From positions 67,349 to 131,348 of the forward strand of contig JBMORT010000009.1 in NCBI GenBank assembly GCA_049319825.1: a DNA stretch of 64,000 nt. The letters run 5' to 3'. This stretch comes from Patescibacteria group bacterium (GTDB lineage: Bacteria; Patescibacteriota; Patescibacteriia; UBA11705; DATKZF01). Positions 1-59,371 of the stretch are shown here, piece by piece; the first letter of the stretch is position 1; each line of letters starts with the position of its first letter. The notes below the pieces were generated by a model. It did not search any database. It saw nothing but the letters and a program-made list of their open reading frames with translations, and was not told the DNA's origin. Made by a program: the position numbers and the translations under genes.

Positions 1-28
1 ATAATTTCGAAATACTAAACAAATTCCA

Positions 29-391
29 ATGATTCAAATTTCAAATAACAAACAATACGATCTTGAGGATAGAACCTTAAAATTTTCAAAGAGTGTTATT
101 GAATTTACGAAACATTTGCCACGAACAATAGAGAATATTGAAATAATTAAGCAATTGATCAGAGCAGTTTGTTCTGTCGGGGCAAATTATATTGAAGCTA
201 ATGAGGCACTTAGTAAAAAGGATTTTTTGATGAGGATAAAAATAAGCAAAAAGGAAGCGAAAGAAAGCATATATTGGCTTAATTTGATAATTGTGAATAA
301 TGACGCTGATAGAAATTTAAGAATAAAATTAATCAATGAAGCTACGGAATTGATGAAAATACTAGGATCAATTTTAGAAAAGTCAAAATAA
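29..391 (+). CDS. four-helix-bundle protein (former '23S rRNA intervening sequence protein' family)
   Basis: 120 aa; the motif ...RAVCSVGANYIEANE... resembles the RAxxSIxxNIAEG signature of 4HB proteins; a paralog sits at 56330-56710. Confidence 0.65.
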   Translation: MIQISNNKQYDLEDRTLKFSKSVIEFTKHLPRTIENIEIIKQLIRAVCSVGANYIEANEALSKKDFLMRIKISKKEAKESIYWLNLIIVNNDADRNLRIKLINEATELMKILGSILEKSK

Positions 392-468
392 AGCCTATAA
401 AATTGTGATTTCGATATTAGAATTTGTTTAGAGTATAATGCTTCTGATTTAGAGTTTCCAAATTTATT

Positions 469-1164
469 ATGGAAAAAATTCGTTTACAAAAATACTTGGC
501 AGACTGCGGCATAGCATCTCGGCGACAAGCCGAGGTGTTTATTGCGCAGGGAAAAGTCACAGTGAATGGTGAGGTGGTCAGAGCGCTCGGCACGAAAGTC
601 GGGCCCCGAGACAAAGTTGAATTCAAAGGCCATGTTGCCAAGCCTGAACGGAAAAAGGTGTACATCATGCTGAATAAGCCTGTCGGATATTTATCGACCG
701 TCAAAAAAGGAAAAGAAAAAGGAAAGACTGTTTTGGAATTGGTTAAAGGCTCGGCCAGAGTGTTCCCTGTCGGTCGATTGGATAAAGAATCAAGCGGGCT
801 GTTGATTTTAACCAATGATGGTGATCTCGCGCTGAAATTGACACATCCCAGGTATGAAAAAGAAAAAGAATATGAAGTGGCGATCACCAGACCGTTGACT
901 GATGAATTTCTTAAAAAAATGAGAAGCGGAGTAAAAATTGATGGAAAAAAGACTTCTCCGGCCAAAGTCATACCCAGGGGCGTTAAAAAATTTAATATTA
1001 TTTTAAAGGAAGGCCGCAAGCGCCAGATCAGGCGCATGTGCGAAGCGCTCGGCTGCGGCGTGATCAGCCTGCGGAGAATAAGGATAAACAAATTGACTTT
1101 GGGAGACCTGAAAATGGGTAATTGTCGAAATTTAACCGAAAAAGAAGTGAATTTATTAAAATAA
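469..1164 (+). CDS. rRNA pseudouridine synthase (RsuA/RluB family) with N-terminal S4 domain
   Basis: S4-like N-terminus (LQKYLADCGIASRRQAE) and catalytic motif VGRLDKESSGLLILTNDG. Confidence 0.85.
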   Translation: MEKIRLQKYLADCGIASRRQAEVFIAQGKVTVNGEVVRALGTKVGPRDKVEFKGHVAKPERKKVYIMLNKPVGYLSTVKKGKEKGKTVLELVKGSARVFPVGRLDKESSGLLILTNDGDLALKLTHPRYEKEKEYEVAITRPLTDEFLKKMRSGVKIDGKKTSPAKVIPRGVKKFNIILKEGRKRQIRRMCEALGCGVISLRRIRINKLTLGDLKMGNCRNLTEKEVNLLK

Positions 1165-1256
1165 GGGTTGCCCTCATGATTATACGTGATTTTTTAATGT
1201 TAATAAAAATTTTTCTTTTTGTGTTATAATGAGTGTAGAAATAAAAATAAAAATTC

Positions 1257-2645
1257 ATGTTGTACAAGTCATGCGGAGCGGCGCGTGAAGTGACCGGCTC
1301 ACGTCATTTATTTGAAATCGGCGGTAAAAAGATACTGTTTGATTGCGGTTTTTTCCAGGGAGGGAATACTCACGAGTCCGAGGAAAAGAATCGAAATTTT
1401 TTGTTTGATCCAAAGGAAGTGACCGCGCTGGTATTAAGCCACGCGCACATAGATCACGCCGGCAACATACCTCGTTTGGTCAAAAGAGGCTTTAGAGGCG
1501 CGATTCACTGCACGTCGATAACGAAAGAATTGATGGAGTTGTTGCTTTTGGATTCGGCGAAGATACAAAAGCAGGATGCCGATCATATTTACAGACATCA
1601 ACATCGAAAAGTCGAGCCGCTGTATGACGAATCCGACGTCCGTCAGGCGATGAAGCAGGTTGAAATTCATGAATATAACGAAAAATTTGAAATTTCCGGC
1701 GGGTGCCGGATCGAATTCATCGAAGCCGGACACGTGCTCGGATCCGCCATAACTTTGGCGGAATTCCGTGAACCCGGAAAGGAAATAAAATTAATTTACA
1801 CGGGAGATTTGGGCAGACGGGGCATGCCGATTTTAAATGATCCGGCTTTGCCCGGACCAGCCGACGTGCTGATCACGGAATCGACATACGGCAGTCATCT
1901 GCATGAATCCATCAATCAGGCGAAAGACGAGCTGAATTGGATCATCAATGATGTCATCGGTCGCGGAGGAAAAATAATCGTGCCCGGATTCTCACTGGAG
2001 CGGACGCAGGAATTGGTATACCTGCTCAATCAGCTTTATGAGGAGCGAAAAATTCCCAAAGTGCCGGTTTACGTCGATAGTCCTCTTTCCACCAAAATTT
2101 CTCAAATATTCATCAAACATCCGGAGGCCTATGACAAAGAAACCGCTCAGTTATTTTTAAATAAAAGAAAAAGCCCTTTTTATTTCGAGGGGTTGCATTA
2201 TATCGTGGATAAAGCCGAATCGATGGCCCTTAATTCATTGAAGCATTCGGCAATTATCATCTCGGCATCCGGCATGTGTCAGGCGGGTCGAATTCAGCAT
2301 CATTTAAAATTTAATGTCAGTGATTCGAAAAATCTGATTTTGGTGGTCGGCTACATGGCTCGGGGAACTTTGGGACGCGCGTTGGTGGAAAAAGAAAGAA
2401 CCGTCACCATTTTGGGAGAAAAATATCCGCTGCGCGCGGAGGTGGTGGTGCTGAACTCATTTTCCGCGCACGCGGACAAGCACGAATTGTTGGAATTTGC
2501 CAGAAACATCAAAGGCTTGAGGAAGATATTTTGTGTCCACGGTGAAGAAACCGAAAGCTTGGTGCTGCGCGATAATTTATACAATATCAACCGATTTGCC
2601 GGCAAAGTGGAAGTGCCCGTGCTGGGGCAGGAATTTTATTTATAA
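1257..2645 (+). CDS. MBL-fold beta-CASP RNA-metabolising nuclease
   Basis: HxHxDH motif (LSHAHIDHAGNIP); 462 aa; CPSF/RNase J-like architecture. Confidence 0.8.
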   Translation: MLYKSCGAAREVTGSRHLFEIGGKKILFDCGFFQGGNTHESEEKNRNFLFDPKEVTALVLSHAHIDHAGNIPRLVKRGFRGAIHCTSITKELMELLLLDSAKIQKQDADHIYRHQHRKVEPLYDESDVRQAMKQVEIHEYNEKFEISGGCRIEFIEAGHVLGSAITLAEFREPGKEIKLIYTGDLGRRGMPILNDPALPGPADVLITESTYGSHLHESINQAKDELNWIINDVIGRGGKIIVPGFSLERTQELVYLLNQLYEERKIPKVPVYVDSPLSTKISQIFIKHPEAYDKETAQLFLNKRKSPFYFEGLHYIVDKAESMALNSLKHSAIIISASGMCQAGRIQHHLKFNVSDSKNLILVVGYMARGTLGRALVEKERTVTILGEKYPLRAEVVVLNSFSAHADKHELLEFARNIKGLRKIFCVHGEETESLVLRDNLYNINRFAGKVEVPVLGQEFYL

Positions 2646-2689
2646 TCGAAAGAGATTACGGATAAATTAAAATTTTTAATCCAAATTTC

Positions 2690-3625
2690 ATGAATCACAT
2701 TGATAAGATGTATAAAAAAATAGTTAACATCGAAATTCAAGGCGCCACTAACGTATGTGAAGCGGTTTTAATGACATTGAAAAAGATCGCCGCTGACCGA
2801 AAAGCCAAAGACGCGCGCGCGTTGATTAAAAAGCTGCATCAGGCAGGCCATTATTTGATCCGTGCGCGCGCGACAGAGCCGATGGCGGTCAACGCCGTCA
2901 GATTCATCGACTTTCATCTCGATCGCCATAGGGATTTGTCTGTGGCGAAACTTCGAGTGTTAATCAGTCGCGCCATCGGCAGTTTTTTATTCGATCTTTC
3001 AAATAACCGAAAAATTATCGCCGATCAAGGCGACGGATTAATACGGCGGGGCGATAATATCTTTACTCATTGTCACTCTTCGACAGTCATTGATATATTA
3101 AAACACGCCCATAAGAGCAAAAAAAAGATTCGAGTTTTCAATACGGAAACCCGGCCGCTTTTTCAGGGCCGGACGACTTCCAAGGATTTGGTAAAAGCCG
3201 GAATATCCAATACGCAGGTTGTTGATTCCGCCGGTCCGTTTTTTGTCAGCAACTTCAGCACAGGATATAACATGGATATTTTGATTTTGGGTTGCGATGC
3301 CATATCGCGTAGCGGAGATGCGGTCAATAAAATCGGATCGTTTGGATTGGCATTGGCCGCTCGGCAGTCGAACATACCGCTTTATGTCGCCACTCAATCT
3401 CTTAAGCTGGATGTGGGAGCGGCGCATTTGGAAAATTTGGAATTGGAAAAAAGGATGGCTCGAGAGGTCTGGCCGACCGCGCCCGAAGGGCTGAAAATCG
3501 TCAATTATGCCTTTGACATCATCCCGGCCGCTTACATTTCCGGTTATATTACCGAGCTGGGAATCATCCGTCCCCGGTATTTGGCGAAAAGGGTTTTCAA
3601 GAAATATAAATTTTTAAAATTATGA
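2690..3625 (+). CDS. ribose-1,5-bisphosphate isomerase (eIF-2B alpha/beta/delta-like, e2b2)
   Basis: eIF-2B-like fold by sequence; placement next to RuBisCO and AMP phosphorylase. Confidence 0.7.
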   Translation: MNHIDKMYKKIVNIEIQGATNVCEAVLMTLKKIAADRKAKDARALIKKLHQAGHYLIRARATEPMAVNAVRFIDFHLDRHRDLSVAKLRVLISRAIGSFLFDLSNNRKIIADQGDGLIRRGDNIFTHCHSSTVIDILKHAHKSKKKIRVFNTETRPLFQGRTTSKDLVKAGISNTQVVDSAGPFFVSNFSTGYNMDILILGCDAISRSGDAVNKIGSFGLALAARQSNIPLYVATQSLKLDVGAAHLENLELEKRMAREVWPTAPEGLKIVNYAFDIIPAAYISGYITELGIIRPRYLAKRVFKKYKFLKL

Positions 3626-4050
3626 TCAAATTAATAATCTGGGATTTGATCGGGGTGGTTTATCAAAATGCTCACATCGATGAAAAAGCCAAGATCATAA
3701 CCAACGATGTTTCCAAAATGGGCATAAAAAATTGTACGATCAGCAACACCATTCCCGATTTGATAAAGGAAGTGTCAAAAGTGTTGGGCATGAATCCGGC
3801 GATATCCACCGTCGAAACGGGATTGAGCAAGCGTGACCGGGAAACTTATGAATATTTGCTCAAAGAAGCCGGAGTTTTAGCATCGGAAACATTAATGATT
3901 GATGATCATAAAAAAAATTTGCACGCGGCAAAAGAACTTGGAATTATCACGGTGTTTTTCGGCGAAGGCTGGCCACGGGAATTGGGAGTGGATTACGCGA
4001 TAAAAAAATTGGATGATTTGATCGATATTTTAAATAAATTAAATACATAA
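3622..4050 (+). CDS. HAD-superfamily hydrolase
   Basis: N-terminal IIWDLIGVV (DxD-like motif I) and C-terminal LMIDDHKKN (motif IV); overlaps the upstream stop (ATGA). Confidence 0.5.
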   Translation: MIKLIIWDLIGVVYQNAHIDEKAKIITNDVSKMGIKNCTISNTIPDLIKEVSKVLGMNPAISTVETGLSKRDRETYEYLLKEAGVLASETLMIDDHKKNLHAAKELGIITVFFGEGWPRELGVDYAIKKLDDLIDILNKLNT

Positions 4051-4072
4051 GAAAAATGAAAAAGTGCCATAA

Positions 4073-5374
4073 ATGTTTTTTTCTTCTTCATTATTTCTTT
4101 TAGATCACCTTATGCCATCAGTCAAATTCGTTGAAATCGGCTATAAACCTAAATATGACAGAGAATTAATCGCCACTTTTTATCTTGAGCCCAATAAAAT
4201 CAGGTTTCAGGAAGCGGCCGACGCTGTGGCCGGCGAAAGTTCCATCGGATCATGGACCGAATTGAAAACTCTAAACCCGAAGCTGGCCCAGCGGTTAAAA
4301 GCTCGAGTTTTTTTTATCAACGAAAAGAAGAAAATCATCAAAATCGCTTACCCGATGGATCTTTTTGAGCGAGGCAGCATACCGCAAATTTTGTCGAGCA
4401 TCGGTGGCAATATTTACGGCATGAAGGCCATAAAAAATTTGCGTTGGTTGGATATTGAATTTCCGAAAAAATACATTGATTCATTCCAGGGTCCGGCTTT
4501 AGGTATCGAGGGCATCAGAAAAATCACCAAAATTAAAAATCGCGTCATTTTGGGAAGTATCATCAAACCCAAAGTTGGGTTGACCGCTTTGCAGCAGGCA
4601 AAGTTGTCGGCGACAGTTTGGCTTAACGGCATTGATTTGATCAAGGACGACGAGAATTTGACCAGCATGTCGTTCAATCGTTTTGAAGATCGCGTTAAAA
4701 AAGTTTTCGAATGGAAAAAACGCGTGGAAAAGGAAACAGGCTGTCCCAAGATATACGCTTGCAACATCACCGCGACGCCCGATGAAATGATCAGGCGCGC
4801 CAAATTGGTTAAGAAATACGGCGGACGCTGCGTCATGGTTGATTTGGTCTCGGTCGGGCTGGACAATGTTCAATATTTGCGAAAGCAGAAGCTCGGTTTG
4901 ATTATCCACGGTCATCGAGCGGGCCATGCCATGTTCACCAGATATAAAAAGCATGGCATGAGCATGCTGGTTTTGGCGAAATTGTCACGATTGGCCGGCA
5001 TTGATCAGCTGCATACCGGGACGGTGGTCGGGAAAATGGTGGGCAGCGGCGAAGAGGTGGTGACCGTTAACAATTTGCTTAAAGAAGACTGGAGCATATA
5101 TAATGCCGTTCGAGAAGATTGGAGCAAGATGAAACCGGTGATGCCGATCGCTTCCGGCGGCCTTCATCCCGGATTAATGCCTAAGTTGGTGGAGATTTTG
5201 GGCAGTGATTTGATCGTGAATTTTGGCGCAGGCATTCACGGCCACCCCGACGGCTCAGCTGCCGGCGCCAGAGCCTGCCGCCAGGCGGCAGAGGCGATTT
5301 TTAAAGGCGTTGATTTACGGGAATATGCTAAAAATCATGAAGAATTGAATAGAGCGCTGCAATTCTGGGGATAA
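4073..5374 (+). CDS. rbcL: RuBisCO large subunit, form II/III-like
   Basis: KPKVGL (carbamylated Lys), GIDLIKDDEN, IHGHRAGHA and SGGLHPG motifs; the real start may be the Met at 4112. Confidence 0.9.
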   Translation: MFFSSSLFLLDHLMPSVKFVEIGYKPKYDRELIATFYLEPNKIRFQEAADAVAGESSIGSWTELKTLNPKLAQRLKARVFFINEKKKIIKIAYPMDLFERGSIPQILSSIGGNIYGMKAIKNLRWLDIEFPKKYIDSFQGPALGIEGIRKITKIKNRVILGSIIKPKVGLTALQQAKLSATVWLNGIDLIKDDENLTSMSFNRFEDRVKKVFEWKKRVEKETGCPKIYACNITATPDEMIRRAKLVKKYGGRCVMVDLVSVGLDNVQYLRKQKLGLIIHGHRAGHAMFTRYKKHGMSMLVLAKLSRLAGIDQLHTGTVVGKMVGSGEEVVTVNNLLKEDWSIYNAVREDWSKMKPVMPIASGGLHPGLMPKLVEILGSDLIVNFGAGIHGHPDGSAAGARACRQAAEAIFKGVDLREYAKNHEELNRALQFWG

Positions 5375-5495
5375 TGAGGACACGGATTACCACGAAGCGG
5401 TCACTTGATGCCCAGATCATCGTACAAGATGTGCAATGTAATTTTTGAGGAAGTAATTTATGCACGCGGTATCATGTAATCTGCTAACATAAAAT

Positions 5496-6995
5496 ATGGC
5501 TTTTTATTTAAAATGCAAAAAATTGGATTTTTCCACCGGTGATAAATTGGTTGTCGTCATCAACGAGGATGAAGCCGATTCTTACGGCATATATCCGGGC
5601 GATCGCCTGCAGCTGGTTTGGAGCAAAACCAAAAAAGTGATCGCCACCGCCGACACCTCCAATACCAAGGTCAAGCCGGGCGAAATCGGTTTGTTTCAGG
5701 AGGTTTGGAAAAAGCACGCGGTCGAGCAGGCGGACATTGTCGAAGTCAGCATCATGAGCCGCCCCCTGTCTATCGAGACGATCAGGAAGAAGTTATTGGG
5801 TCAACCGGCCACATACCAAGAAATTCACGCGGTAATCAAAGACATTGTTGACGGCACTTTGGGTTCGATCGAAACAACGTATTATGCCGCCTCGAGTTTC
5901 GTGAAAGATTATTCTTTGGACGAGCTTTATTACGTCACCAAAGCAATGGCGGATACGGGAGAGAAGATGAATCTCAATGTCGAAGTGGTTGATAAACATT
6001 CGGTCGGCGGCTTGGCCGGGAATCGGGTCACTCCACTGGTGGTTTCCATTATCGCTTCACTCGGACTTTATATACCCAAAACTTCATCCAGAGCGATTAC
6101 TTCGCCGGCGGGCACCGCCGATACCATGGAAGTGATTTGTCCGGTGTCTTTTTCCATGAATGAGATACGCAAAATTGTTAAAAAAACGAAAGCATGCTTG
6201 GTTTGGGGCGGGGGATTAAGTTTGGCGCCGGCTGATGATAAAATCGTCAATGTCTCTCGGCCGCTGGCTTTTGAACCTTATGATAAAATGATTGTCAGTA
6301 TTTTAGCCAAAAAAGTGGCGATGGGAGTCGATTATTTGGTCATCGACATACCCGTCGGTCCGAGTACGAAAGTACCCAGCATGGCCAAAGCCGACATGAT
6401 CGAAAAAAAGTTTGTCGCGCTGGGCAAGCGATTCGGCATGAAAATCAAAGCGGTAAAGACTAAAGCGATGGAACCTATCGGCCGGGGAATCGGTCCGGCA
6501 TTGGAAGCGCGGGACATTTTTCGAGTGCTACAGCGTCATGAACTGCGACCGCTTGATCTGGAGAGAAAAGCGGTTAAACTGGCTGGCGAGCTGCTGGAGT
6601 TGAAAAAATTCGCGCCCAAAGGTCAAGGCCGGATTTTGGCCATGCAGCAGCTAAAAAGCGGGGATGCTTGGGAAAAAATGAATGAAATAGTTGTCGCGCA
6701 AGGCGGCAACCCCAACCAACATTCCGAGGATTTTACCTCTGGAGCGATCCGCTACGAGATACACGCGAAAAAAACGGGCAAAATAATTGCCGTGGACAGT
6801 AAGGCGATCAATGAAATTTGCATGAACTTGGGTGCTCCCAGCGATAAATTGGCAGGGATTCACTTGCATGCCTTTTATGGACAAAAGATAAAAAAGGGAG
6901 ACAAATTGTTCACTCTATACGCCAGCTCGAACGATCGCCTTAAGCTTGGTTTGATGGCGACTAGCAAGGTGGAAATTTTTAAGATAGGTCGGTAG
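5496..6995 (+). CDS. AMP phosphorylase (thymidine phosphorylase family, DeoA-like)
   Basis: 499 aa; N-terminal AMP-phosphorylase-specific domain followed by the glycosyltransferase fold (SVGGLAGNRVTP, TSSRAITSPAGTADT). Confidence 0.8.
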   Translation: MAFYLKCKKLDFSTGDKLVVVINEDEADSYGIYPGDRLQLVWSKTKKVIATADTSNTKVKPGEIGLFQEVWKKHAVEQADIVEVSIMSRPLSIETIRKKLLGQPATYQEIHAVIKDIVDGTLGSIETTYYAASSFVKDYSLDELYYVTKAMADTGEKMNLNVEVVDKHSVGGLAGNRVTPLVVSIIASLGLYIPKTSSRAITSPAGTADTMEVICPVSFSMNEIRKIVKKTKACLVWGGGLSLAPADDKIVNVSRPLAFEPYDKMIVSILAKKVAMGVDYLVIDIPVGPSTKVPSMAKADMIEKKFVALGKRFGMKIKAVKTKAMEPIGRGIGPALEARDIFRVLQRHELRPLDLERKAVKLAGELLELKKFAPKGQGRILAMQQLKSGDAWEKMNEIVVAQGGNPNQHSEDFTSGAIRYEIHAKKTGKIIAVDSKAINEICMNLGAPSDKLAGIHLHAFYGQKIKKGDKLFTLYASSNDRLKLGLMATSKVEIFKIGR

Positions 6996-7102
6996 CTGAG
7001 TCGTATCGTACCGGATGCGGTTATAATTCCCATGTATCCACTGCTTGCTCTAAACAAAAATTTTTGTTAACATAAAGTCGTTGATAAATAACTCAAAATA
7101 TT

Positions 7103-7801
7103 ATGGAAAAAACAAAAAATAATTTTTGGCTGGGATTCTTCGTGGGATTGGCCGTGGTCAGCGTCGTTTGTTTCGCCGGGCTGCTGGTATTCGTGCTGAG
7201 TCAGGGAGAAGCTGTGAATTTAGCGGAAAAGGTGCAAGCCGCGCCGGAGACTGAACAACCAACGGAAGCGAGCGCCCAACCGGTGCCGGCAGTGACCGCG
7301 GATGATCATCTTAAAGGTTCAGCCGACGCCAAGGTTATTTTGATCGAATATTCCGATTTTGAATGCCCCTATTGCGCCGCGCACGCGCAGACCATCAGCC
7401 AGATCGCTAAAAACTATTCAAAAGACGTCGCCATTGTTTTCCGGCATTTCCCTTTGTCTTTTCATGCCAATGCGCAGAAAGCGGCCGAAGCATCCGAATG
7501 CGCCGCCCGGCAAGGCAAATTTTGGGAAATGCATGATAAGCTGTTTGATCTCAACCAAAAAGGGAACATGGGGATCGCGCAATTCAAGTCAGCCGCTAAA
7601 GAAATTGGTTTGGATACCGGCAAGTTCGATGATTGTCTAGATAGCGGTCAAACCGCCCGGGAAGTGTCGAGCGACATGGCCGGCGGCCAGCAGGCCGGAG
7701 TCAGCGGCACACCCGGCACGTTCGTCAATGGACAGTTGGTGAGCGGCGCCTTGCCCTACGATCAGTTTTCACAGTTTTTGGATCAGCTGTTGGTTAAATA
7801 A
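7103..7801 (+). CDS. DsbA-family thiol:disulfide oxidoreductase, membrane-anchored
   Basis: N-terminal TM helix; thioredoxin CPYC active site (FECPYCAAH). Confidence 0.8.
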   Translation: MEKTKNNFWLGFFVGLAVVSVVCFAGLLVFVLSQGEAVNLAEKVQAAPETEQPTEASAQPVPAVTADDHLKGSADAKVILIEYSDFECPYCAAHAQTISQIAKNYSKDVAIVFRHFPLSFHANAQKAAEASECAARQGKFWEMHDKLFDLNQKGNMGIAQFKSAAKEIGLDTGKFDDCLDSGQTAREVSSDMAGGQQAGVSGTPGTFVNGQLVSGALPYDQFSQFLDQLLVK

Positions 7802-7819
7802 AAAAAACAATATGGAAAG

Positions 7820-7842
7820 CTCGGCATAGCAGCCGAGTTTTT
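7820..7842 (+). terminator. rho-independent terminator
   Basis: ctcggc-atagca-gccgag hairpin followed by T5. Confidence 0.5.
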
Positions 7843-7909
7843 CGGTCTTATTGACTAATAATTTGGTTATGATAATTTTAAAATATGATTTATTCGTCAC
7901 ATTTAATTT

Positions 7910-9358
7910 ATGAGCAGAAAGATTAAAATCGGTGTTATCATTCTTTCCTTATTGTTTGCTTTGGGCTATGACCTGCTTTTCCCTTCGCCGGATTTGGGCA
8001 TTAATTTTGGCGTTTTTATCTTGGCATTTTTGGTCGCCGCCATCTTGCTGAAGTTCTCGATCGACAAAAAAACATCGAATTTATGGTCTTTGTTTTTTTG
8101 CGTGCCGATTTTATGGTACGCGGGATGCGTTGCCGTCTATCAGAGCCTTTTTGTCCATGTGGTGGCGCCGCTGGCCAGTATTTTTCTTTTGATTCTATTT
8201 TTGTTTTGGTTTGGCGTTGAGGATCTGCCGATGAAAAAAGTGAAGAGAATTTTACCGCTGTCGTTGATTTTGTTTGTCGGCAGATTTTTCTCAAAAATCA
8301 GCGCTCCATTTTCAGGAATTTTTAAGCTCGATGCTAAAAAATCCGGCAAGGTGATCGTCGCTTTGATCATATTAGTGCCGTTGCTTTTTATTTTTGGCGC
8401 GCTTTTTATCAGCGCTGATTTAATATTCAGAGAATGGATCAAGCAGCTTTTTGATGCTTCGATAGACGTTCATAACACTTGGCGAGTCGTCAGAACCATC
8501 GGTCTGTTTTTGTTCTTTGGCGGATTGATGTTCGCCTTTATCATGAAAAAAAGATTTCCGCAAAAAATCGAATCGGAAGCCGCGACCAATAAAGAGCCGG
8601 AGCAAATTAAAAGGGATTCGATCATTGCCAACATCATTTTGGGGGTGTTAAATTTATTTTTTCTGTTGTTTATCGTGATTCAGGTGATGTTTCTTTTCGG
8701 TGGCCATGACATCATTAAAAAATACGATATTACTTACGCGGATTACGTCCACCAGGGGTTTTACCAAATGTGCGCCATTGCCGTTTTGGTGTTGATCATC
8801 AGCTATATCATGTTTAGAATGAATCGATCAGAAAAATTCGACACCGTAAAATTATTAAACAGCGTTTTTATCATTCAATCGCTGATCATCGTCAGCTCGG
8901 CGTTAAAAAGATTGTTTTTGTATCAAGAAGCCTACGGTTTGACTCAGTTGAGATTTTTGGTCTGGCATTTCACTCTTTATATTGGATTAATTTTGCTGTC
9001 GTTAGCTTTGATAATTGTTTTCAAAAAGCATTATCGGCTGTTCGTGAAGGTCGGCTTGGTGATCTCGACAATTTATCTGATGTTCATGACCGGTATCAAT
9101 ATGCAAGCAAGAATCGCCAAAGTCAATATCGATCGGTATTTGTCCGGACAAGATAAAGAAATAGACATGTCTTATTTGTTAAATTTATCCGTGGATATTT
9201 CCGAACAAATGAAGCGTTTAAAGAACGACCAATCTGAATCTGTCAGAGATTATTATCAGCGCTGGCGAGATTCAAAAGACAGACGGGGAAACATCGACAC
9301 CCAATGGCAAAATTACACTTTGACAGAAATAAAATTTTGGCGGGATATCGACCAATAA
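7910..9358 (+). CDS. polytopic integral membrane protein, unknown function
   Basis: 482 aa; about 10 or more hydrophobic helices. Confidence 0.6.
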   Translation: MSRKIKIGVIILSLLFALGYDLLFPSPDLGINFGVFILAFLVAAILLKFSIDKKTSNLWSLFFCVPILWYAGCVAVYQSLFVHVVAPLASIFLLILFLFWFGVEDLPMKKVKRILPLSLILFVGRFFSKISAPFSGIFKLDAKKSGKVIVALIILVPLLFIFGALFISADLIFREWIKQLFDASIDVHNTWRVVRTIGLFLFFGGLMFAFIMKKRFPQKIESEAATNKEPEQIKRDSIIANIILGVLNLFFLLFIVIQVMFLFGGHDIIKKYDITYADYVHQGFYQMCAIAVLVLIISYIMFRMNRSEKFDTVKLLNSVFIIQSLIIVSSALKRLFLYQEAYGLTQLRFLVWHFTLYIGLILLSLALIIVFKKHYRLFVKVGLVISTIYLMFMTGINMQARIAKVNIDRYLSGQDKEIDMSYLLNLSVDISEQMKRLKNDQSESVRDYYQRWRDSKDRRGNIDTQWQNYTLTEIKFWRDIDQ

Positions 9359-9391
9359 CAAAAACCTCGGCATAGCCGGGGTTTTATATAA

Positions 9392-9640
9392 TCAGAAGAT
9401 AGCGAATTTTTTACCCGTGCCCCCGCATTCGAGGCAATCGGGATATGTTTCGACTTCTCCTTGGCCCAAACAGTGGGTACATATTGTTTTTATTTGTGTG
9501 TTACGGCTCGGTGATCCATGATGGAAAATTGATCGTGGGGTCATCTTCTCTCCCTGGCAAAAGGGGCAGATTACTGTTTCCACTATTTTCCCGGTTCCGT
9601 TGCATGTTGGGCAATTTCCGCATTCAACGAGTTGTGTCAC
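9392..9640 (-). CDS. stand-alone DnaJ-type (CR-domain) zinc-finger miniprotein
   Basis: four CxxCxGxG-like repeats (CGNCPTCNGTGK, CPFCQGE, CTHCLGQGE, CLECGGTGK); GTG start 8 nt after an AAGGAGGG RBS. Confidence 0.6.
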   Translation of the reverse strand: MTQLVECGNCPTCNGTGKIVETVICPFCQGEKMTPRSIFHHGSPSRNTQIKTICTHCLGQGEVETYPDCLECGGTGKKFAIF

Positions 9641-9839
9641 CTTCAGCTCCCTCCTTATAGCTGGAACCGTCTACTGCTTGGTCAAGGTAAGTATGATATC
9701 AAAAAAAATATTATTTGTCAAATGCTTGTATGAATTTTAGGCTAATTTTAGAAAAAAAGAAGCGGCTTTTTAAAAATCAATTTATTATTTTGATGGTTAA
9801 TTATTGAGTATATTTATTCATTATTAAATCAGATTCAGC

Positions 9840-9868
9840 TTGATTTTTCCAAGGAAATTTGGTAGAAT
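9840..9868 (+). promoter_or_regulatory. sigma-70-like promoter upstream of tRNA-Ser
   Basis: TTGATT-17 nt-TAGAAT about 60 nt upstream of the tRNA. Confidence 0.4.
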
Positions 9869-9929
9869 AGTTTTCGAATGGTCATTGATTATAAAAAATT
9901 ATTTTTAGAAATAATAGCAAACAAACCAT

Positions 9930-10017
9930 GGAGAGATGGCCGAGTGGTTTAAGGCGCACGCTTGGAGAGCGTGTATGGGGAAACTCATCCAGGGTTCGAA
10001 TCCCTGTCTCTCCGCCA
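9930..10017 (+). tRNA. tRNA-Ser (anticodon GGA)
   Basis: cloverleaf with long variable arm, G73 discriminator, encoded CCA; anticodon loop TTGGAGA. Confidence 0.8.
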
Positions 10018-10077
10018 TGTTCCTCACGACGACGTGGCTACGTTATACAACGAGTTTAAATCCTTCAAAATATCAAC

Positions 10078-10658
10078 ATGTCCAGCAAAATAGCTCAAAT
10101 CAAAAATTTAGTAAAAAATGAATGCGCCAGTCTCGGATTTATTGATGACTGGTTTTATAATGTGCATTTATTGGGAGTGGAAAAGTTCGCCAAAATATTA
10201 TTGAAAAAATGCCCAAGGCCGATAAAGAAATCGTTATGCTCGGAGTGTGGCTGCATGATCTGCAATATATTCATGGAATAAAGGGCGATCATGGCAAAGT
10301 CGGCGCGGCTGAAGCGGTGAAAGTAATGAAGCGATATAATTATCCTGCAAAAACCATTGAACAAGTAAAGGAGATAATTTTATCTCACAGCTGTGATACT
10401 GGCCCAATGCCGAAGACTTTGGAAGGTAAAATTTTGGCTTCAGCCGATGCCATGTCCCATTACATTAATGATTTTTATTTTGCCATTGCCGTTACCGGAG
10501 AGAGAGATTTGAAAACTTTCAAAAAGTGGGCGCTGAAAAAGCTTGATAAAGATTACAATAAAAAAATATTTTTCGGTTTTGCGAAAAAGATGATTGCCGG
10601 GCGGCATCAGACATTAATGGATGTTTTCAAAATGGGTAATTTTAAAAATCAACAATAA
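10078..10658 (+). pseudogene. HD-domain phosphohydrolase, interrupted by a frameshift
   Basis: ORF 10078-10281 (helix-1 His) and ORF 10209-10658 (LHDLQYIHG HD motif) lie in different frames; adding one A to the A6 run at 10204-10209 fuses them seamlessly. Confidence 0.55.
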
Positions 10659-26144: not shown

Positions 26145-29100
26145 ATGAATTTTAGGCAAGAGTCAATTTTCAAGTATTTTTTAATCTGCGTTTCACTTTT
26201 TTGTCTGTTCTTCTACGTGGTGCAGATAATCAATGCTTATCCTTTTGAAACAGTGCGTCAAGACACTGTAAACGGCTCGGATGTCGCCGTATTGGTATCT
26301 GAGGATTTTAATACCGATGGCTGGCTCGATGTGGCGGCCACCAGCTGCAATGATAACACGCTTTCGGTGCATATGGGCAGGGGGGATGGCTCGTTTGAAG
26401 ACGCGGTTTCATATTCGACCGGAAATTGTCCATGGGCGGTTCGATCAGGCGATTTTAATTTGGATCGTAATGTCGATTTGATGGTGACCAATTCAGGGGA
26501 AGATACGATCACGGTTTTTTTAGGAAATCCTGACGGGTCATTTAATGCCGGAATTGACTATACGGTTGGAAATAATCCTTATGACGCGGTCGCTTCGGAT
26601 CTCGATGGAGACGGATTTTTGGATTTAATCGTCGGGAATTATAGCGATAGCACCGTGTCCGTTTTGTTAAATGACGGTACGGGTAATTTCAATTTTGACT
26701 CTGAGTATGACACGGGCGATAATAATTGGGGAGTTGTTGCCGGAGATTTTAATAACGACGGCTTTAATGATATTGCCACCGCAAATTATAATGACGATAG
26801 TGTGTCAGTGCTGCTGGGCAATGGAGACGGCACGCTTGGAATCCATACGGATTATCCTGCCGGAGACAATCCTGATGCGATCACTGCCGCCGATCTAAAT
26901 AGGGATAATCAATTGGATTTGATGACCTCAAATGAATTGAGTAATGATGTTACTGTTTTGATAGGAAACGGGGATGGCACGTTTCAGGCGGCAATCAGTT
27001 ACGGGGTCGGGGCGGCACCGTATTCCGTAGCTGCTAAAGATTTGAATAATGATCGCTATCCGGATTTGATAACGGCAAATTACAACGATAATACCGTTTC
27101 CGTGTTGATTAATAATGGCGGCCTAAACTTCAACGCGGCCACGAATTATTCATCAGGATATGGAACTTTTTGGGCGATCGTGGCGGATATCGATGACAAC
27201 GCCATTCCGGATATTGTCACGGCCGATTACGATTATGGAATTTTTTCCGTGCTTTTCGGAAATGGCAACGGTACATTCAAGGTTTTACCGGAATATTCGG
27301 TTGGGGATTCTCCCTACTTTGTTTATAGCGCCGATATCAATAAAGACAATAAGCCGGATTTAATATCGGCTAATTACGATTCTGATAATATTTCCGTACT
27401 AATCAATAATGGTAAGGGGACTTTTGCCAATGCTCAGAATTATAATGTCGGGAGTAATCCCGGTTCCCTGGTATCCTCGGATTTAAATAAAGACGGCGAT
27501 GAGGATTTGATTGTCGCCAACTATGGAAGCTCGACATTTTCCGTGCTTTTTGGCAATGGAAATGGAAGTTTTGGCGATCCCGTTGATTATTTGACAGGCT
27601 CCGGACCCAGGCAGGTAAAAACCGCGGATGTTGACAATGATGGTGATCAGGATATGGTGATCGTCGGGTCAAAAGTGGTTTGTCGCTTGCCGATTTTTCC
27701 CATATTATTCGTAATCAGACCTCGTCCGCCGTTTCCTCCGGACTGTCGATTAAGAAATTTCGGTTCAGTATATTATAATGACGGTACCGGATCTTTCACC
27801 GGCAGCGCCGCTTTAACGGTGGGAGGAAATCCGATGGATATTTCGACCGGAGATTTTAACGGTGATGATTATATCGATTTAGCGTATTCAGTCGCCGACG
27901 AAGGTAACTTGTATGTTGTTTTGAATGATGGAGCTGGTGTATTCGGATCACCGACGTCCTACGCCGCCGGCGGCGGCGCTCATGGCGTCAGCCTGGCCGA
28001 TTTTGATCAAGATGGAATACTTGATGCGGCAGTTTCAAATACCGATGATAATACCATATCATTGTTGATCGGCAATGGAGACGGATCATTCCAGCCGGCC
28101 GTTCAATACGATTCCATCGGCGGGCCGGCGATGATGATCGCTTATGATATTGATAAGGATTCAAAAATAGATCTGATCGCCACAAACACCGCGGCTGAAA
28201 ACTTCGCGATATTGATGGGAGCAGGCAGCTTTAGCGCCACCAAATATTTCGGAGCGGGAGATGCTCCCGTCGCTGTCGCTCATGGCGATTTTAATCATGA
28301 CGGTTATGATGATTTGGCCATTGCCAATTCCGGAGAAGATTCCATATCCGTCGCTTTTAATCGCGCTGCTCGTGCGGGCTCTGGCGGCGGTGGCGGGGGA
28401 GGATCAAATTTTTTGCCTCCCGAAGCATTCTTTCCTCCAAGTCCTCCTGAGGACGGTTTTTCAGTCGAGCTTTACGAAGACAACGATACTAATGACGCTT
28501 GTAAAATGTTTTTGGTGATGAATGGCGGTGTGGACGCCAATAGAATAACCATATCTAATAACCCGGAGTTCGAGCACGCCATTTTAGATTCATATTCGCC
28601 GGTGATGACTTGGAATTTTTGCGATAACCCGACCAACCATGGAATCGGTAACAAAGATGTTTCCGCGGTCGCTGAAAGTCAAATGATTTACGTCAAATTT
28701 TACACGAAATGGGGCAGATGCAGTGATCCGATCAGTATTTCACTGGACAGTATAAAAACCTATGCTGAATTTGAACAGATGATGGTATCCGATGGCAGCG
28801 TCATTGCCGCCAGTGGAGATTCGACTGTGTATTTGATTAAAGATAAAGCCAAATGGCCGTTTATGAGTCAACATGTTTTGGAATCATGGGGGTATCGAGA
28901 AGAGAATGTTATTTCCGTATCGAATTTAAATCTGTGGGCGACCGGGCATGAATTATGGTACCCGATCGATCACCACTATATCCAGGGAATGCTAGTCACC
29001 GGAAAAGATAAATTGTATATTATCTCCGACTCAACGCTAAGAGAATTTGACACAGATTCGATCGCCGAAAAATTGGGATATAAAATTGCTAATGCCGTGA

Positions 29101-29339
29101 CTTTGCCAGATTACATCTTAAACGATTTTCAGATCGGTTCAAAAATCGAGTCGGATTCAGCGCATCCTGACGGCACATTGATAAAATATGATAACAGTCC
29201 GAATGTCTATTTGCTTGATAATGGAGAGAAAAGATGGATCGTGACGATGAACGCTTTCGTTTCCGGCGGATATAATTGGGATTCAATCATAACCATTCCC
29301 GATGATCATCAATATCCTAACGGAGAATCAATAAAATAA
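26145..29339 (+). CDS. giant FG-GAP/VCBS-repeat (beta-propeller) surface protein with C-terminal domain of unknown function
   Basis: N-terminal signal/TM; more than 14 repeats of the DxDxDGxxD...SVLLGNGDGTF type; poly-Gly linker (GSGGGGGGGS) then a ~300-aa non-repeat domain. Confidence 0.8.
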   Translation: MNFRQESIFKYFLICVSLFCLFFYVVQIINAYPFETVRQDTVNGSDVAVLVSEDFNTDGWLDVAATSCNDNTLSVHMGRGDGSFEDAVSYSTGNCPWAVRSGDFNLDRNVDLMVTNSGEDTITVFLGNPDGSFNAGIDYTVGNNPYDAVASDLDGDGFLDLIVGNYSDSTVSVLLNDGTGNFNFDSEYDTGDNNWGVVAGDFNNDGFNDIATANYNDDSVSVLLGNGDGTLGIHTDYPAGDNPDAITAADLNRDNQLDLMTSNELSNDVTVLIGNGDGTFQAAISYGVGAAPYSVAAKDLNNDRYPDLITANYNDNTVSVLINNGGLNFNAATNYSSGYGTFWAIVADIDDNAIPDIVTADYDYGIFSVLFGNGNGTFKVLPEYSVGDSPYFVYSADINKDNKPDLISANYDSDNISVLINNGKGTFANAQNYNVGSNPGSLVSSDLNKDGDEDLIVANYGSSTFSVLFGNGNGSFGDPVDYLTGSGPRQVKTADVDNDGDQDMVIVGSKVVCRLPIFPILFVIRPRPPFPPDCRLRNFGSVYYNDGTGSFTGSAALTVGGNPMDISTGDFNGDDYIDLAYSVADEGNLYVVLNDGAGVFGSPTSYAAGGGAHGVSLADFDQDGILDAAVSNTDDNTISLLIGNGDGSFQPAVQYDSIGGPAMMIAYDIDKDSKIDLIATNTAAENFAILMGAGSFSATKYFGAGDAPVAVAHGDFNHDGYDDLAIANSGEDSISVAFNRAARAGSGGGGGGGSNFLPPEAFFPPSPPEDGFSVELYEDNDTNDACKMFLVMNGGVDANRITISNNPEFEHAILDSYSPVMTWNFCDNPTNHGIGNKDVSAVAESQMIYVKFYTKWGRCSDPISISLDSIKTYAEFEQMMVSDGSVIAASGDSTVYLIKDKAKWPFMSQHVLESWGYREENVISVSNLNLWATGHELWYPIDHHYIQGMLVTGKDKLYIISDSTLREFDTDSIAEKLGYKIANAVTLPDYILNDFQIGSKIESDSAHPDGTLIKYDNSPNVYLLDNGEKRWIVTMNAFVSGGYNWDSIITIPDDHQYPNGESIK

Positions 29340-41404: not shown

Positions 41405-42991
41405 TTGTCATCAAATATGAAAAAAATCCTATTTATATTAATAATCGTCGCGGTTTTAATACTCGGCGGGTTCAGCCTGTTGACCGCCTTCGCCCAACCG
41501 ATCGAGCTGGAAAATCCCGTGGTTTTATTGACCGCGCCCTTGGGCGAGGTTTTTTATAGGATATCCGGTTTGTCGTATATTCCGGTCAGCGGTGAAATGA
41601 GGCTGGAAGCCGGGGATTGGGTTAAAACCAACCGCAATTCGAACGTTAAGATTGTTTTTTTCGACAGTCAGGAATTGGAGCTGGATCAAAACACCGAAAT
41701 TCAGATAACCGAAGCGCTGATCGATCAGCACTCGCCGTTTCTCACCAAAGTAAAAGTCAAGCTGACCGAGGGCCAAGTTTGGTCAAGAGTGCTTGAGCTG
41801 CTTCATCCGGACAGTTCATATCAAGTGGAAGCGGAAAACGTGGTGGCCACGGTGCGCGGCACATCGTTTAATATGAAAAACAGCGGCGGCGCGGTTAATG
41901 TTGATGTCTTTGAGAATGCCGTTTATCTTGGGGACGGTGAGCAACAGGTTACAGTGAATGAAAATCAAACAGCGTCGTATGATGATGTCAAAATTAGCGA
42001 TGAGCCAGCGGCGAAAGCAGCGCGCCGGCAACGCCAGCTTATCATTAAGCAAATCGATCCGAATCAAAGAGAAAATTATTGGGTAAAAAATAATTTAGAG
42101 AAAAATGCGTTGTTTAGGCAAAATTTAATTGATAAAAGAAAGAAAATACTCAGTCAAGTCCGACTGCCCGGTGATAAATTTTATAACATTAAACTGCTGG
42201 GCGAAAAACTTTCTTTGTTAACCGCCATGAATCCGGCCAAAAGGCAGGATATTAAGAATCGCATCTCGCTCGAGCGAATGCTGGAGGCGGAAAAGCTGCT
42301 TGATCAAAATAAAAAAACGGAAGCGCTTCGAATTTTAGATAATCTGGGCCCGGCTGCCGCGGCTTATCAAATTCAGCGTCTGCGCGCCATTGATCCCGAT
42401 TTTTTGACTAAATTTTCATCGGACGCGGAACTGCAGGATATTTATCGCGCCCACGTTTTTGGCGAGGGCGCGGTGCAATCATTGCTCGATCGCTGGCAAA
42501 GCATCAATCAGCGCTTATTGACCGCCGTTAGCTCCCAGCCGCTGTCCGACGAGGCGTCGGCATTGATAAACAAGGAATCGAATCAGCTCAAACAAGAGAT
42601 AAACGGCTTAACTCAGCGAGCCAAGGACGCGCTGATAGATTTGAATAGTTTTGATATCGGCGCCACCTTTCCCAGCCAGGATCAAACCGATAAATTTTTG
42701 GCTGATAATCAGCAAAGCAGAAAGCGAATTTTTAAAATTTTGGAAGATCTTGATGCGTTGGAGATTGAAAGAGAATACATTCAGCGACAAGCACTGGCAA
42801 TGGTCGGCTCGCCATCGGAGTCGTTCGCGAAAGAATTATTGGAACGCTGGGCATTGCTGCAGGCCGGTTTTTCAGCGGTACAAAAAGAATTATCTGCGGT
42901 TGAGGCCAAAATTTCCGATATTTCGGTGAATTTGATTGTTCCGGCCACGCCCGATAGCGAAATCAATTTATTAAACATAACTCCGGATTAA
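41405..42991 (+). CDS. membrane-anchored FecR-like domain protein with long coiled-coil region
   Basis: N-terminal TM; VATVRGTSFNM FecR-like strand; helical C-terminus. Confidence 0.5.
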   Translation: MSSNMKKILFILIIVAVLILGGFSLLTAFAQPIELENPVVLLTAPLGEVFYRISGLSYIPVSGEMRLEAGDWVKTNRNSNVKIVFFDSQELELDQNTEIQITEALIDQHSPFLTKVKVKLTEGQVWSRVLELLHPDSSYQVEAENVVATVRGTSFNMKNSGGAVNVDVFENAVYLGDGEQQVTVNENQTASYDDVKISDEPAAKAARRQRQLIIKQIDPNQRENYWVKNNLEKNALFRQNLIDKRKKILSQVRLPGDKFYNIKLLGEKLSLLTAMNPAKRQDIKNRISLERMLEAEKLLDQNKKTEALRILDNLGPAAAAYQIQRLRAIDPDFLTKFSSDAELQDIYRAHVFGEGAVQSLLDRWQSINQRLLTAVSSQPLSDEASALINKESNQLKQEINGLTQRAKDALIDLNSFDIGATFPSQDQTDKFLADNQQSRKRIFKILEDLDALEIEREYIQRQALAMVGSPSESFAKELLERWALLQAGFSAVQKELSAVEAKISDISVNLIVPATPDSEINLLNITPD

Positions 42992-48865: not shown

Positions 48866-49675
48866 ATGACTGGGGCCAGGAAAGTGCCGTTTGCGCACCA
48901 AGACACCCAGCCTCCGGAAGAAATTTCAGCAGCGGCAGTGGAGGCTGGTGTGCGACACCGATCATCGAGACTTCTTGTTTTGGGACAAATCGCCTTTGAA
49001 GTGGCACATCAGCTCAATAATTGTCTCACCGGAATTTGTGGCGGCTTATATTGTTTGGAATCGGAAGCGGCAGATCCGCTTCTCAGGCAAGAATTGCGAT
49101 TTCTCAAGGAATCGGCTGAGAGAGCAATCAATTTGACTCAGGGAATCAATGAATTTGGACGGAAAAAAACGCAAACGTCAAAGCTGATTGACGTAAATGC
49201 GGTGATTTCCGATGTGATCAGATTTTTCCGGCAAATTTTCGCTGAATCAATAATGCTGAGCTATACGGTTGATGGCCAATTCACCATTTGGGCTGATCAA
49301 TGCCAGATCTTTGAAATGATGCTGAATATTTTGATCAACGCCTATGACGCTGTCCGGAATAATCAGGAAAAAAACAGGCAAATTTCGATTCATGTCAGCG
49401 CTTTGAGGCTGGAAAGAGGTTTGATTAATTCTCCCCGCAGTCGCGAAGGCAATTTTGTGAAAATTGCCATCTCGGATAATGGTTGCGGAATTTCAAAGGA
49501 AGATTTGCCTAAAATATTCGACGCATATTTTACCACCAAGGGAGATTTTGGTAGCGGGCTTGGCCTCAAAATCGTCAAAGAAATTATCGAGACTCATCAT
49601 GGCTGGATTGATGCGGAGAGCGATCCTGATGAGGGAACCACTTTTTCCGTGTTTTTCCCTGCGGAAATTCGATGA
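48866..49675 (+). CDS. cytoplasmic sensor histidine kinase (HisKA + HATPase_c, no sensor domain)
   Basis: H-box EVAHQLNNCLTGI; N, G1, G2 boxes (DNGCGI, GSGLGL); AAGGAGGG RBS. Confidence 0.85.
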   Translation: MTGARKVPFAHQDTQPPEEISAAAVEAGVRHRSSRLLVLGQIAFEVAHQLNNCLTGICGGLYCLESEAADPLLRQELRFLKESAERAINLTQGINEFGRKKTQTSKLIDVNAVISDVIRFFRQIFAESIMLSYTVDGQFTIWADQCQIFEMMLNILINAYDAVRNNQEKNRQISIHVSALRLERGLINSPRSREGNFVKIAISDNGCGISKEDLPKIFDAYFTTKGDFGSGLGLKIVKEIIETHHGWIDAESDPDEGTTFSVFFPAEIR

Positions 49676-49677
49676 AA

Positions 49678-49704
49678 GGTGTTTATTCAATAAACACCTT
49701 TTAT
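49678..49704 (+). terminator. hairpin/terminator between histidine kinase and HypF-like gene
   Basis: ggtgtttat-tca-ataaacacc 9-bp stem plus TTTTAT. Confidence 0.45.
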
Positions 49705-49716
49705 ATTTGGGTCAAT

Positions 49717-55187: not shown

Positions 55188-55198
55188 ATGAATGATTT

Positions 55199-59130: not shown

Positions 59131-59134
59131 ATTA

Positions 59135-59371
59135 TCATTTTTTGGTGGAATCCTTAATAATCTGTTCGATTCTTTTATCCATTTCTTCCGCATCTTTGGT
59201 GATTTGCTCTTTTTTAAATTGGTCATCTTCTTTTTCCGCCTTAACCACGTAGATGTTTCGGTCATAAATCAATTGAGTGATCTGCGGCAGCAGCTGAGCT
59301 TTGGCGTCCGGATCAACGACGCCATGATCGGCGAAATATTGTTCGATTGATTTTTGTTTAATTTGATTCAT
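59135..59371 (-). CDS. hypothetical small acidic protein, apparently translationally coupled to gpmI
   Basis: its stop lies 4 nt upstream of the gpmI ATG. Confidence 0.4.
   Translation of the reverse strand: MNQIKQKSIEQYFADHGVVDPDAKAQLLPQITQLIYDRNIYVVKAEKEDDQFKKEQITKDAEEMDKRIEQIIKDSTKK

Follow-up and report, generated by a model that had tools for sequence, protein, structure and literature searches.

A probable AMP salvage module with a form III-c RuBisCO and an embedded capless HAD-type gene in a Patescibacteria bacterium

We analyzed a 64,000-nucleotide stretch of DNA (hereafter the window; positions 67,349 to 131,348 of contig JBMORT010000009.1, assembly GCA_049319825.1) from a member of Patescibacteria, or Candidate Phyla Radiation (CPR) bacteria, with a focus on 4 adjacent forward-strand genes at 2690 to 6995 encoding an isomerase homologue, a small HAD-type hydrolase, a RuBisCO large subunit, and an adenosine monophosphate (AMP) phosphorylase. 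The region is probably an AMP salvage module that leads through RuBisCO to 3-phosphoglycerate (3-PGA). All 4 open reading frames (ORFs) lie where a preliminary description of the sequence had placed them, with E-values far beyond chance. The features of the module are as follows.

2690 to 3625, forward strand: e2b2, eIF-2B-like ribose-1,5-bisphosphate (R15P) isomerase homologue, 311 aa (PF01008 IF-2B, E 7.6e-60, 203 bits)
3622 to 4050, forward strand: small capless HAD-IA-type hydrolase, 142 aa (PF00702/PF13419, TIGR01509)
3622 to 3625, forward strand: ATGA, shared by the e2b2 stop and the HAD start (sequence read directly)
4112 to 5374, forward strand: rbcL, form III (III-c clade) RuBisCO large subunit, 420 aa (TIGR03326, PDB matches, neighbor-joining tree)
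4073 to 5374, forward strand: the same gene from an alternative upstream ATG at 4073, 433 aa (ORF as listed)
5496 to 6995, forward strand: deoA, AMP (nucleoside monophosphate, NMP) phosphorylase, 499 aa (Glycos_trans_3N, Glycos_transf_3, and PYNP_C)

The 4 proteins are already in GenBank (MFZ5365459-62) from a Patescibacteria metagenome-assembled genome (MAG), under the names eIF-2B, HAD family hydrolase, type III RuBisCO, and AMP phosphorylase. The ATGA overlap suggests translational coupling of e2b2 and the HAD gene. The true start of rbcL is most likely Met14 of the longer frame (position 4112), because the identical NCBI protein, named type III RuBisCO, has 420 aa and the closest homologues have 419 to 421 aa.

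The rbcL product has both RuBisCO domains, RuBisCO_large_N (PF02788, E 1e-38) and RuBisCO_large (PF00016, E 2e-87), and its translation contains each of the motifs read in it earlier (KPKVGL, GIDLIKDDEN, IHGHRAGH, and GGLHPG). It passed the type III equivalog model TIGR03326 (512.9, cut-off 497.45) and matched solved form III structures over the full length (2cwx at 415.6 bits, 6hun at 392, and 1geh at 352). Relatives in the nr database named "Form III-c" share 60% to 71% identity with it. In a neighbor-joining tree of 61 sequences, built without form II, II/III, or III-a references, RbcL fell inside an all-Patescibacteria clade of 36 sequences (bootstrap 57) that holds all 5 nr-labeled III-c sequences, and within this in an inner clade of 11 (bootstrap 100); the split from form IV also had a bootstrap of 100. 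Deep nodes were weakly supported, as also met in RuBisCO trees by Jaffe et al. (PMC6389311).

Column-by-column alignment revealed that RbcL keeps K175, K177, K201, D203, E204, H294, R295, H298, H327, K334, S379, G380, G381, and G403, which correspond, in this order, to K152, K154, K178, D180, E181, H268, R269, H272, H301, K308, S348, G349, G350, and G372 in the numbering of the 420-aa product. E60, W66, and N123 (E42, W48, and N100) are invariant, and T65 is replaced by S47, Ser being the III-c consensus. Two form IV references have lost K177, H298, H327, S379, and G380, whereas the window RbcL retains all 5. The preliminary description had proposed a check of the K175, K201, D203, E204, H294, and H327 equivalents, all of which are conserved, and had named clustering with form IV or loss of catalytic residues as findings that would overturn its assignment; we found neither, the tree separating RbcL from form IV and the alignment leaving the catalytic residues intact. 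Judged by its sequence, RbcL is a form III RuBisCO of the Patescibacteria-specific III-c clade, with predicted carboxylase activity.

The deoA product carries 3 domains of the thymidine phosphorylase family, as its earlier assignment to that family implied, and passed the AMP phosphorylase equivalog TIGR03327 (539.9, cut-off 535). Its match to the AMP phosphorylase of Thermococcus kodakarensis (4ga5, 373 bits) spans residues 6 to 496 and includes the N-terminal domain, whereas pyrimidine-nucleoside phosphorylases (approximately 128 bits), in which this extra domain is absent, aligned only from residue 93. For e2b2, the best solved matches were the R15P isomerases 5yfj (133.7 bits) and 3a11 (129.4), ahead of the MtnA structure 1t9k (106), and the catalytic Cys (in THCHS) and Asp (in GCDAIS) align with those of R15P isomerases, in keeping with the R15P isomerase assignment first proposed. 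We compared residues from the list in PMC6423476 across 63 RuBisCO-linked homologues (42 from Patescibacteria and 21 archaeal). C133, D202, R63, S135, N212, K213, and R254 (T. kodakarensis, Tk, numbering) were invariant, and K238 was Lys in all but 1 homologue, which has Arg; the window protein has Lys.

We read the region as the module by which a CPR bacterium would run the carboxylating pentose-bisphosphate pathway (AMP salvage), with a probability of roughly 0.8. The AMP phosphorylase (5496 to 6995) would convert AMP, and possibly other NMPs, with phosphate to the free base and R15P; the eIF-2B-like isomerase (2690 to 3625) would convert R15P to ribulose-1,5-bisphosphate (RuBP); finally, the form III-c RuBisCO (4112 to 5374) would carboxylate RuBP to 2 molecules of 3-PGA for lower glycolysis, where a phosphoglycerate mutase encoded in the same window would take 3-PGA onward. 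Homology, the retention of catalytic residues, and the recurrent gene order are the grounds on which we infer all 3 steps. The closest solved structures for all 3 core proteins are characterized archaeal pathway enzymes, and the AMP to R15P to RuBP to 3-PGA route put forward earlier holds by the equivalog cut-offs passed by RbcL and DeoA and by the catalytic residues.

The same gene order, e2b2-rbcL-deoA, with occasional e2b2-RuBisCO fusions, was described for III-c enzymes by Jaffe et al. 2019 (Mol Biol Evol, PMC6389311), which bears out the earlier remark that the route is not novel as such. The window resembles those CPR clusters in RuBisCO clade, in having e2b2 and deoA as partners with the RuBisCO gene between them, and in host radiation. 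It differs from them in that they comprise 3 genes, consecutive or with e2b2 fused, whereas the window adds the 142-aa HAD gene. The T. kodakarensis pathway consists of AMP phosphorylase TK0353, R15P isomerase TK0185, and a form III-b RuBisCO (cited in PMC6389311 from Sato 2007 and Aono 2015). Homologues of all 3 enzymes, with catalytic residues conserved, are found in the window, and Thermococcales structures are the closest; RbcL, however, shares approximately 50% identity with the T. kodakarensis enzyme and is III-c rather than III-b, and the host of the window is a bacterium. The pathway genes, dispersed in T. kodakarensis, are clustered in the window.

Several observations weigh against the module reading. 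No enzyme of the III-c clade had been assayed as of Jaffe et al. 2019 (PMC6389311). RbcL has Ala373 at the position of spinach G404, in the GGG loop that binds the P1 phosphate, and this Ala is limited to its closest relatives (4 of 37 Patescibacteria sequences). The e2b2 product scored 191.6 with the R15P isomerase model TIGR00511, far below the cut-off of 314.1, although this was still its top-ranked NCBIfam model. It also has Gln17 and Ser in place of R20 and K136, which contact the ligand in the Thermococcus R15P isomerase. The Gln at Tk-R20 ("IQGA" type) was found in 42/42 Patescibacteria and 20/21 archaeal RuBisCO-linked e2b2 proteins, and Ser at Tk-K136 in 32/42 and 18/21 RuBisCO-adjacent ones, respectively, so that Gln and Ser at these 2 ligand-contacting positions represent a clade-wide trait of nearly all RuBisCO-linked e2b2 proteins outside Thermococcales and probably not a defect of the window gene. 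The structurally studied Thermococcales R15P isomerases may thus be atypical of the family, which matters because the isomerase mechanism was inferred from Thermococcales enzymes only.

Other readings of the core genes were weighed against the AMP salvage module. The cluster could be a methionine-salvage-like set of MtnA isomerase, RuBisCO-like protein, and MtnX-type HAD phosphatase, as the Bacillus subtilis mtnA/mtnW/mtnX genes form the same trio of eIF-2B-like, RuBisCO-family, and HAD domains and as sub-threshold matches to MtnA and MtnW models were obtained. The MtnW scores of RbcL, however, reached only 193 to 236 against cut-offs of 409 to 514 (the OiaX model was also far below its cut-off), and the MtnX model was absent among the matches of the HAD protein. 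RbcL retains the 5 residues lost in the form IV references and is parted from form IV in the tree, e2b2 resembles R15P isomerases more closely than it does MtnA, and the fourth gene encodes an AMP phosphorylase. On the form III residues, the MtnW scores, the form IV split, and the AMP phosphorylase gene, we rejected methionine salvage, to which we leave a negligible probability. No more credible is a form II/III RuBisCO, the label used in the preliminary description. The first RuBisCO reported from CPR bacteria was of form II/III (studies cited in PMC6389311), but the form II/III structure 5mac gave 262 bits, in an alignment ending at residue 352, whereas form III structures gave 352 to 416 bits over the full length. 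RbcL also failed the form II model NF010002 (292, cut-off 489), whereas it passed the type III model, and it clusters with proteins labeled III-c, so the form II/III label was dropped. Use of the RuBisCO, additionally or instead, in a Calvin-Benson-Bassham-like or reductive hexulose-phosphate-type route dependent on phosphoribulokinase (PRK) is very unlikely. PRK homologues occur in some III-c-bearing Gottesmanbacteria (PMC6389311), and our view covers 64 kb of the genome. Among the scanned called genes and ORFs of at least 110 aa, no match to PRK (PF00485) was found, as had been noted before, a result limited to these 64 kb that says little on the whole genome. Further, rbcL has e2b2 and deoA on either side, PRK was reported by Jaffe et al. 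from Gottesmanbacteria and Peregrinibacteria alone (PMC6389311), and the named relatives of the module are Falkowbacteria, Kuenenbacteria, and Komeilibacteria.

The core of the AMP salvage module is thus textbook for CPR bacteria, already known and annotated, and the window adds one more example. The layout with the HAD gene is its sole nonroutine part, of modest novelty within a known system. The 142-aa HAD protein matched PF00702 (30.3 bits) and PF13419 (24.4 bits) above their cut-offs, covering only the C-terminal half of these profiles, and TIGR01509 (HAD-IA variant 3) at 33.9 (cut-off 29.4). Its motifs are WDLIGV with the nucleophile Asp8 (motif I), TISNT with S41 (motif II), Lys70 (motif III), and Asp94-Asp95 (motif IV). 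Across the family, at 28% to 59% identity, D8, K70, D94, and D95 are invariant and motif II always has Ser or Thr. The second Asp of the DxD motif, the general acid/base Asp+2, is missing from WDLIGV, and every relative has I, L, Y, F, M, H, or N at its position. The C1 cap is missing as well; in alignment, the protein shows a clean deletion of approximately 56 residues relative to capped relatives at loci L006 (193 aa) and L032 (205 aa). Dehalogenases and epoxide hydrolases need cap residues and have no Mg2+-binding DD pair, and such a role was ruled out for the HAD protein by the invariant DD pair.

The AlphaFold model of the HAD protein (pLDDT, the predicted local distance difference test score, 95.3) is a bare Rossmann-like core with no cap. 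Foldseek retrieved C0 phosphatases (KdsC/YrbI), the uncharacterized, capless 137-aa protein 2pr7, and cores of HAD-IA proteins. KdsC/YrbI and 2pr7 share the bare core (TM 0.68 to 0.75; root-mean-square deviation, rmsd, 2.0 Å for 2pr7) at 15% to 20% identity. KdsC has a DxD motif, and its tetramerization provides a pseudo-cap. With a capped family member (pLDDT 88) as the query, a fold search gave generic HAD-IA matches only (dehalogenases, cis-epoxysuccinate hydrolases, the N-terminal domain of soluble epoxide hydrolase [sEH], NANP, and phosphoglycolate phosphatase [PGP]) at an rmsd of 4 to 8 Å, so no substrate can be read from them. The nearest solved sequences were YihX, PH1655, and the sEH N-terminal phosphatase (50 to 67 bits), with CbbY (4uav) at 31.9 bits and PGPs at approximately 33 bits. 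Escherichia coli YihX, a HAD-IA variant 3 alpha-D-glucose-1-phosphate phosphatase, resembles the HAD protein in its HAD-IA core, in its motif I without Asp+2 (FDLGNV in the E. coli K-12 record), in the Lys of motif III, and in the DD of motif IV. At 22% to 24% identity, it is among the best solved-sequence matches; unlike the window protein, it has a full C1 cap, and it is no specific orthologue, the glucose-1-phosphatase model giving 28 bits against a cut-off of 295.

The features below lie outside the 4 genes, and the first 2 recur in the neighborhoods of related HAD genes.

1257 to 2645, forward strand: beta-CASP metallo-beta-lactamase RNase-like gene, upstream context outside the pathway (Pfam Beta-Casp, Lactamase_B, RMMBL)
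7103 to 7801, forward strand: DsbA-like thioredoxin-fold gene, downstream context (PF13462, PF01323)
7813 to 7844, forward strand: terminator-like hairpin, 13-bp stem then T-run (consensus scan, pattern match only)
57553 to 59265, reverse strand: cofactor-independent phosphoglycerate mutase, the candidate for the step after 3-PGA (gene scan of the window)

Relatives of the HAD protein were sought by a word-indexed single-sequence search, then with a profile, and then by an exhaustive profile search over 1.84 billion representatives. The single sequence returned 2 relatives only and the profile approximately 11 tight clusters; the exhaustive search gave 11 representatives at E<=1e-30 and, by a gradual transition, 9,411 generic HAD-IA proteins at 1e-10. 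The HAD gene occupied the slot between e2b2 and rbcL in 10 of 11 distinct neighborhoods (the window, L002, L004, L006, L008, L032, L086, L088, L090, and L095), often overlapping 1 or both neighboring genes. Start/stop overlaps like the ATGA of the window were identified in L002, L004, L086, and L088, and in L088 the HAD gene also overlaps the rbcL start. The beta-CASP gene is in synteny with the module across many Patescibacteria (among them L002, L004, L006-L009, L012, L086, and L095) and with a lone HAD gene in L094, and most close relatives have the DsbA-like gene downstream, with a DUF4153 gene also found there. In L094, a capless relative of 134 aa (840 to 1244) lies in a beta-CASP - HAD - DsbA - DUF4153 string that has no e2b2, rbcL, or deoA; from this syntenic position the pathway genes seem to be absent, although the HAD gene is still there.

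For a census of the module, 80 species-representative loci were retrieved with an RbcL profile. In 42 of these, e2b2 lies directly 5' of rbcL, with gaps mostly below 210 bp and deoA usually next, and just 3 of the 42 species-level modules carry the HAD gene, which supports its earlier description as an unusual member. On the RbcL tree, HAD-bearing modules occupy 3 places among HAD-less ones, with capped and capless forms as neighbors.

Other occupants of the slot were also observed. A 156-aa cytidylyltransferase-like gene (RfaE domain II-like, HxGH) takes it, with no HAD, in L016 (7511 to 7981) and L021 (2242 to 2715), and what looks like a truncated copy of this gene was found in L018 (408 to 584). 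L020 has a membrane ORF in the slot, and L008 has a 282-aa gene of the PgeF/Cu-oxidase_4 family (6391 to 7239), a family linked to purine-nucleoside enzymes, between e2b2 and the HAD gene. Fusions among distant HAD relatives were tandem HADs or insertions into EngA/Der-like proteins, in which the HAD lies between both GTPase domains (P0183, 920 aa; P0200, 862 aa), and none involved a pathway enzyme. At the place of e2b2 in L090 (4096 to 5001), only a 73-aa product was called, which may reflect an in-frame stop or a calling artefact; tblastn still gave a full-length e2b2 match. The deoA gene 3' of rbcL in L095 (5644 to 6387) was called as 247 aa, comprising the N-terminal and helical-bundle parts and followed directly by secA on the opposite strand, and may encode a truncated AMP phosphorylase.

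The HAD protein would be a HAD-IA derivative that has lost its cap and Asp+2, is translationally coupled to the isomerase, and is encoded by a rare accessory gene. It keeps every residue for Mg2+ binding and for the aspartyl-phosphate, and the invariance of these residues points to an active phosphoryl-transfer enzyme and not to a dehalogenase-type or dead protein; it may therefore be a phosphohydrolase acting on a phosphorylated pathway metabolite. Because YihX is a phosphatase despite its FDLGNV motif, the loss of Asp+2 is compatible with phosphatase activity. The missing Asp+2 would favor substrates with a good leaving group, the likeliest, in analogy to YihX, being the anomeric 1-phosphate of R15P or ribose-1-phosphate (R1P); alternatively, the substrate could be a side product of RuBisCO. 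HAD phosphatases connected with RuBisCO, R15P isomerase, or pentose-bisphosphate metabolism exist, namely a haloarchaeal RuBP phosphatase (PMC9700705), TK1734 and TK2301 of T. kodakarensis (PMC11032457), and CbbY (PMC10212915), which makes an accessory phosphatase the natural reading. That the HAD protein acts on a pathway sugar phosphate in this way is our best guess, and a tentative one. The word "phosphatase" used for it in the preliminary description is not established, since the general acid/base Asp and the cap are missing. No profile or fold comparison singled out one substrate, and the low occupancy and L094 also count against an accessory role in the pathway: presence in just 3/42 modules makes the HAD gene dispensable, and the L094 locus indicates that it can persist apart from the pathway.

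L094 and the low occupancy also keep alive the possibility that the HAD gene is only a passenger of the local synteny, with a housekeeping function that has nothing to do with the AMP/RuBisCO pathway, in a conserved beta-CASP...DsbA neighborhood in or around which the pathway genes are placed. Further in line with a passenger, 39/42 species-level modules do without it, and the slot is open to unrelated genes, such as the cytidylyltransferase-like gene (L016, L021), the membrane ORF (L020), and the PgeF-like gene (L008). Yet the HAD gene shares bases with the e2b2 stop and, in L088, with the rbcL start as well; the same slot is used in 3 separate parts of the RbcL tree, including L088 and L090, which have no beta-CASP/DsbA synteny; and the tight HAD family is almost confined to the e2b2-rbcL slot. 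Passenger status is therefore a live but doubtful explanation. We consider it unlikely that the HAD protein serves damage control or a branch point, as a phosphatase of 2-phosphoglycolate (2-PG; CbbZ/TK1734-like), xylulose-1,5-bisphosphate (XuBP; CbbY-like), or RuBP (the haloarchaeal 5-phosphatase type). All 3 activities belong to HAD enzymes with a RuBisCO or R15P isomerase connection, their genes lying within or co-occurring with the RuBisCO or R15P isomerase genes (PMC9700705, PMC11032457, PMC10212915), and the haloarchaeal RuBP phosphatase gene is operonic with that of R15P isomerase in some species (PMC9700705). Relatives of the HAD protein gave weak sub-threshold matches to NF053830 (RuBP 5-phosphatase) and phosphoglycolate phosphatase models, but these stayed far below the cut-offs (at most 35 bits against 180 to 466, e.g., 34.7 against 330), and the window HAD protein itself had no match to the curated CbbY, phosphoglycolate phosphatase, or RuBP 5-phosphatase models. 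CbbY and the PGPs are more distant from it than YihX, PH1655, and the sEH N-terminal phosphatase. The enzymes with these activities are capped, unlike the window protein, and carry the canonical DxD motif. Alkyl phosphates such as 2-PG, XuBP, and RuBP normally need the Asp+2 acid/base, and HAD specificity normally comes from the cap, both of which the window HAD protein is without; a RuBP phosphatase would, moreover, compete with the adjacent RuBisCO.

A narrower form of the accessory-phosphatase proposal, rather improbable in our view, is that the capless HAD protein provides the CPR pentose-bisphosphate pathway with a fifth, dedicated activity, as a 1-phosphatase of R15P (or of R1P or phosphoribosyl pyrophosphate, PRPP) or as a docking subunit. 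A 1-phosphatase would divert AMP-derived ribose to ribose-5-phosphate (R5P) for nucleotide resynthesis, and a docking HAD protein would obtain its cap and substrate specificity from an isomerase or RuBisCO partner. CPR bacteria rely on scavenged nucleotides, and the HAD protein may bear on how their ribose is split between energy (through RuBisCO to 3-PGA) and reuse (R5P/PRPP), as well as on how the RuBisCO of an anaerobe handles misfire products. At 142 aa, confidently modeled and with a short list of candidate substrates, it is a small and tractable lead.

The hairpin at 7813 to 7844, after the DsbA-like gene, was the first strong terminator-like one 3' of the gene string in the consensus scan. 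An Rfam scan of positions 1 to 10500 (E<=1) gave a tRNA-Ser and 2 chance-level matches only, and thus no riboswitch or leader in the module. The promoter scan found no convincing promoter in the module; promoter-like sites were rarer than in shuffled sequences (6 vs. 11.6), which makes the scan uninformative. The best NCBIfam match of the beta-CASP gene (1257 to 2645) was the type VII CRISPR Cas14 model (422 bits; cut-off 800). In the public records, the Patescibacteria-type module also appears under the name "uncultured Gammaproteobacteria bacterium" (binchicken MAGs; L006, L008, L009, L015, L016, and others), and 1 protein (P0002) is named as Bipolaricaulota; these names are probably taxonomic mislabels. 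Elsewhere in the window, we identified hydrogenase-maturation genes (49672 to 50886 on the forward strand and 54219 to 56275 on the reverse strand) encoding a HypF C-terminal domain protein, a HypE-like protein of the AIR-synthase family, and HypD. A 1064-aa ORF at 26145 to 29339 (forward strand) has no Pfam match on record, and at 41405 to 44976 (forward strand) a gene for a FecR/DUF5667 protein is followed by one for a CHASE2-guanylate/adenylate cyclase, their stop and start codons overlapping.

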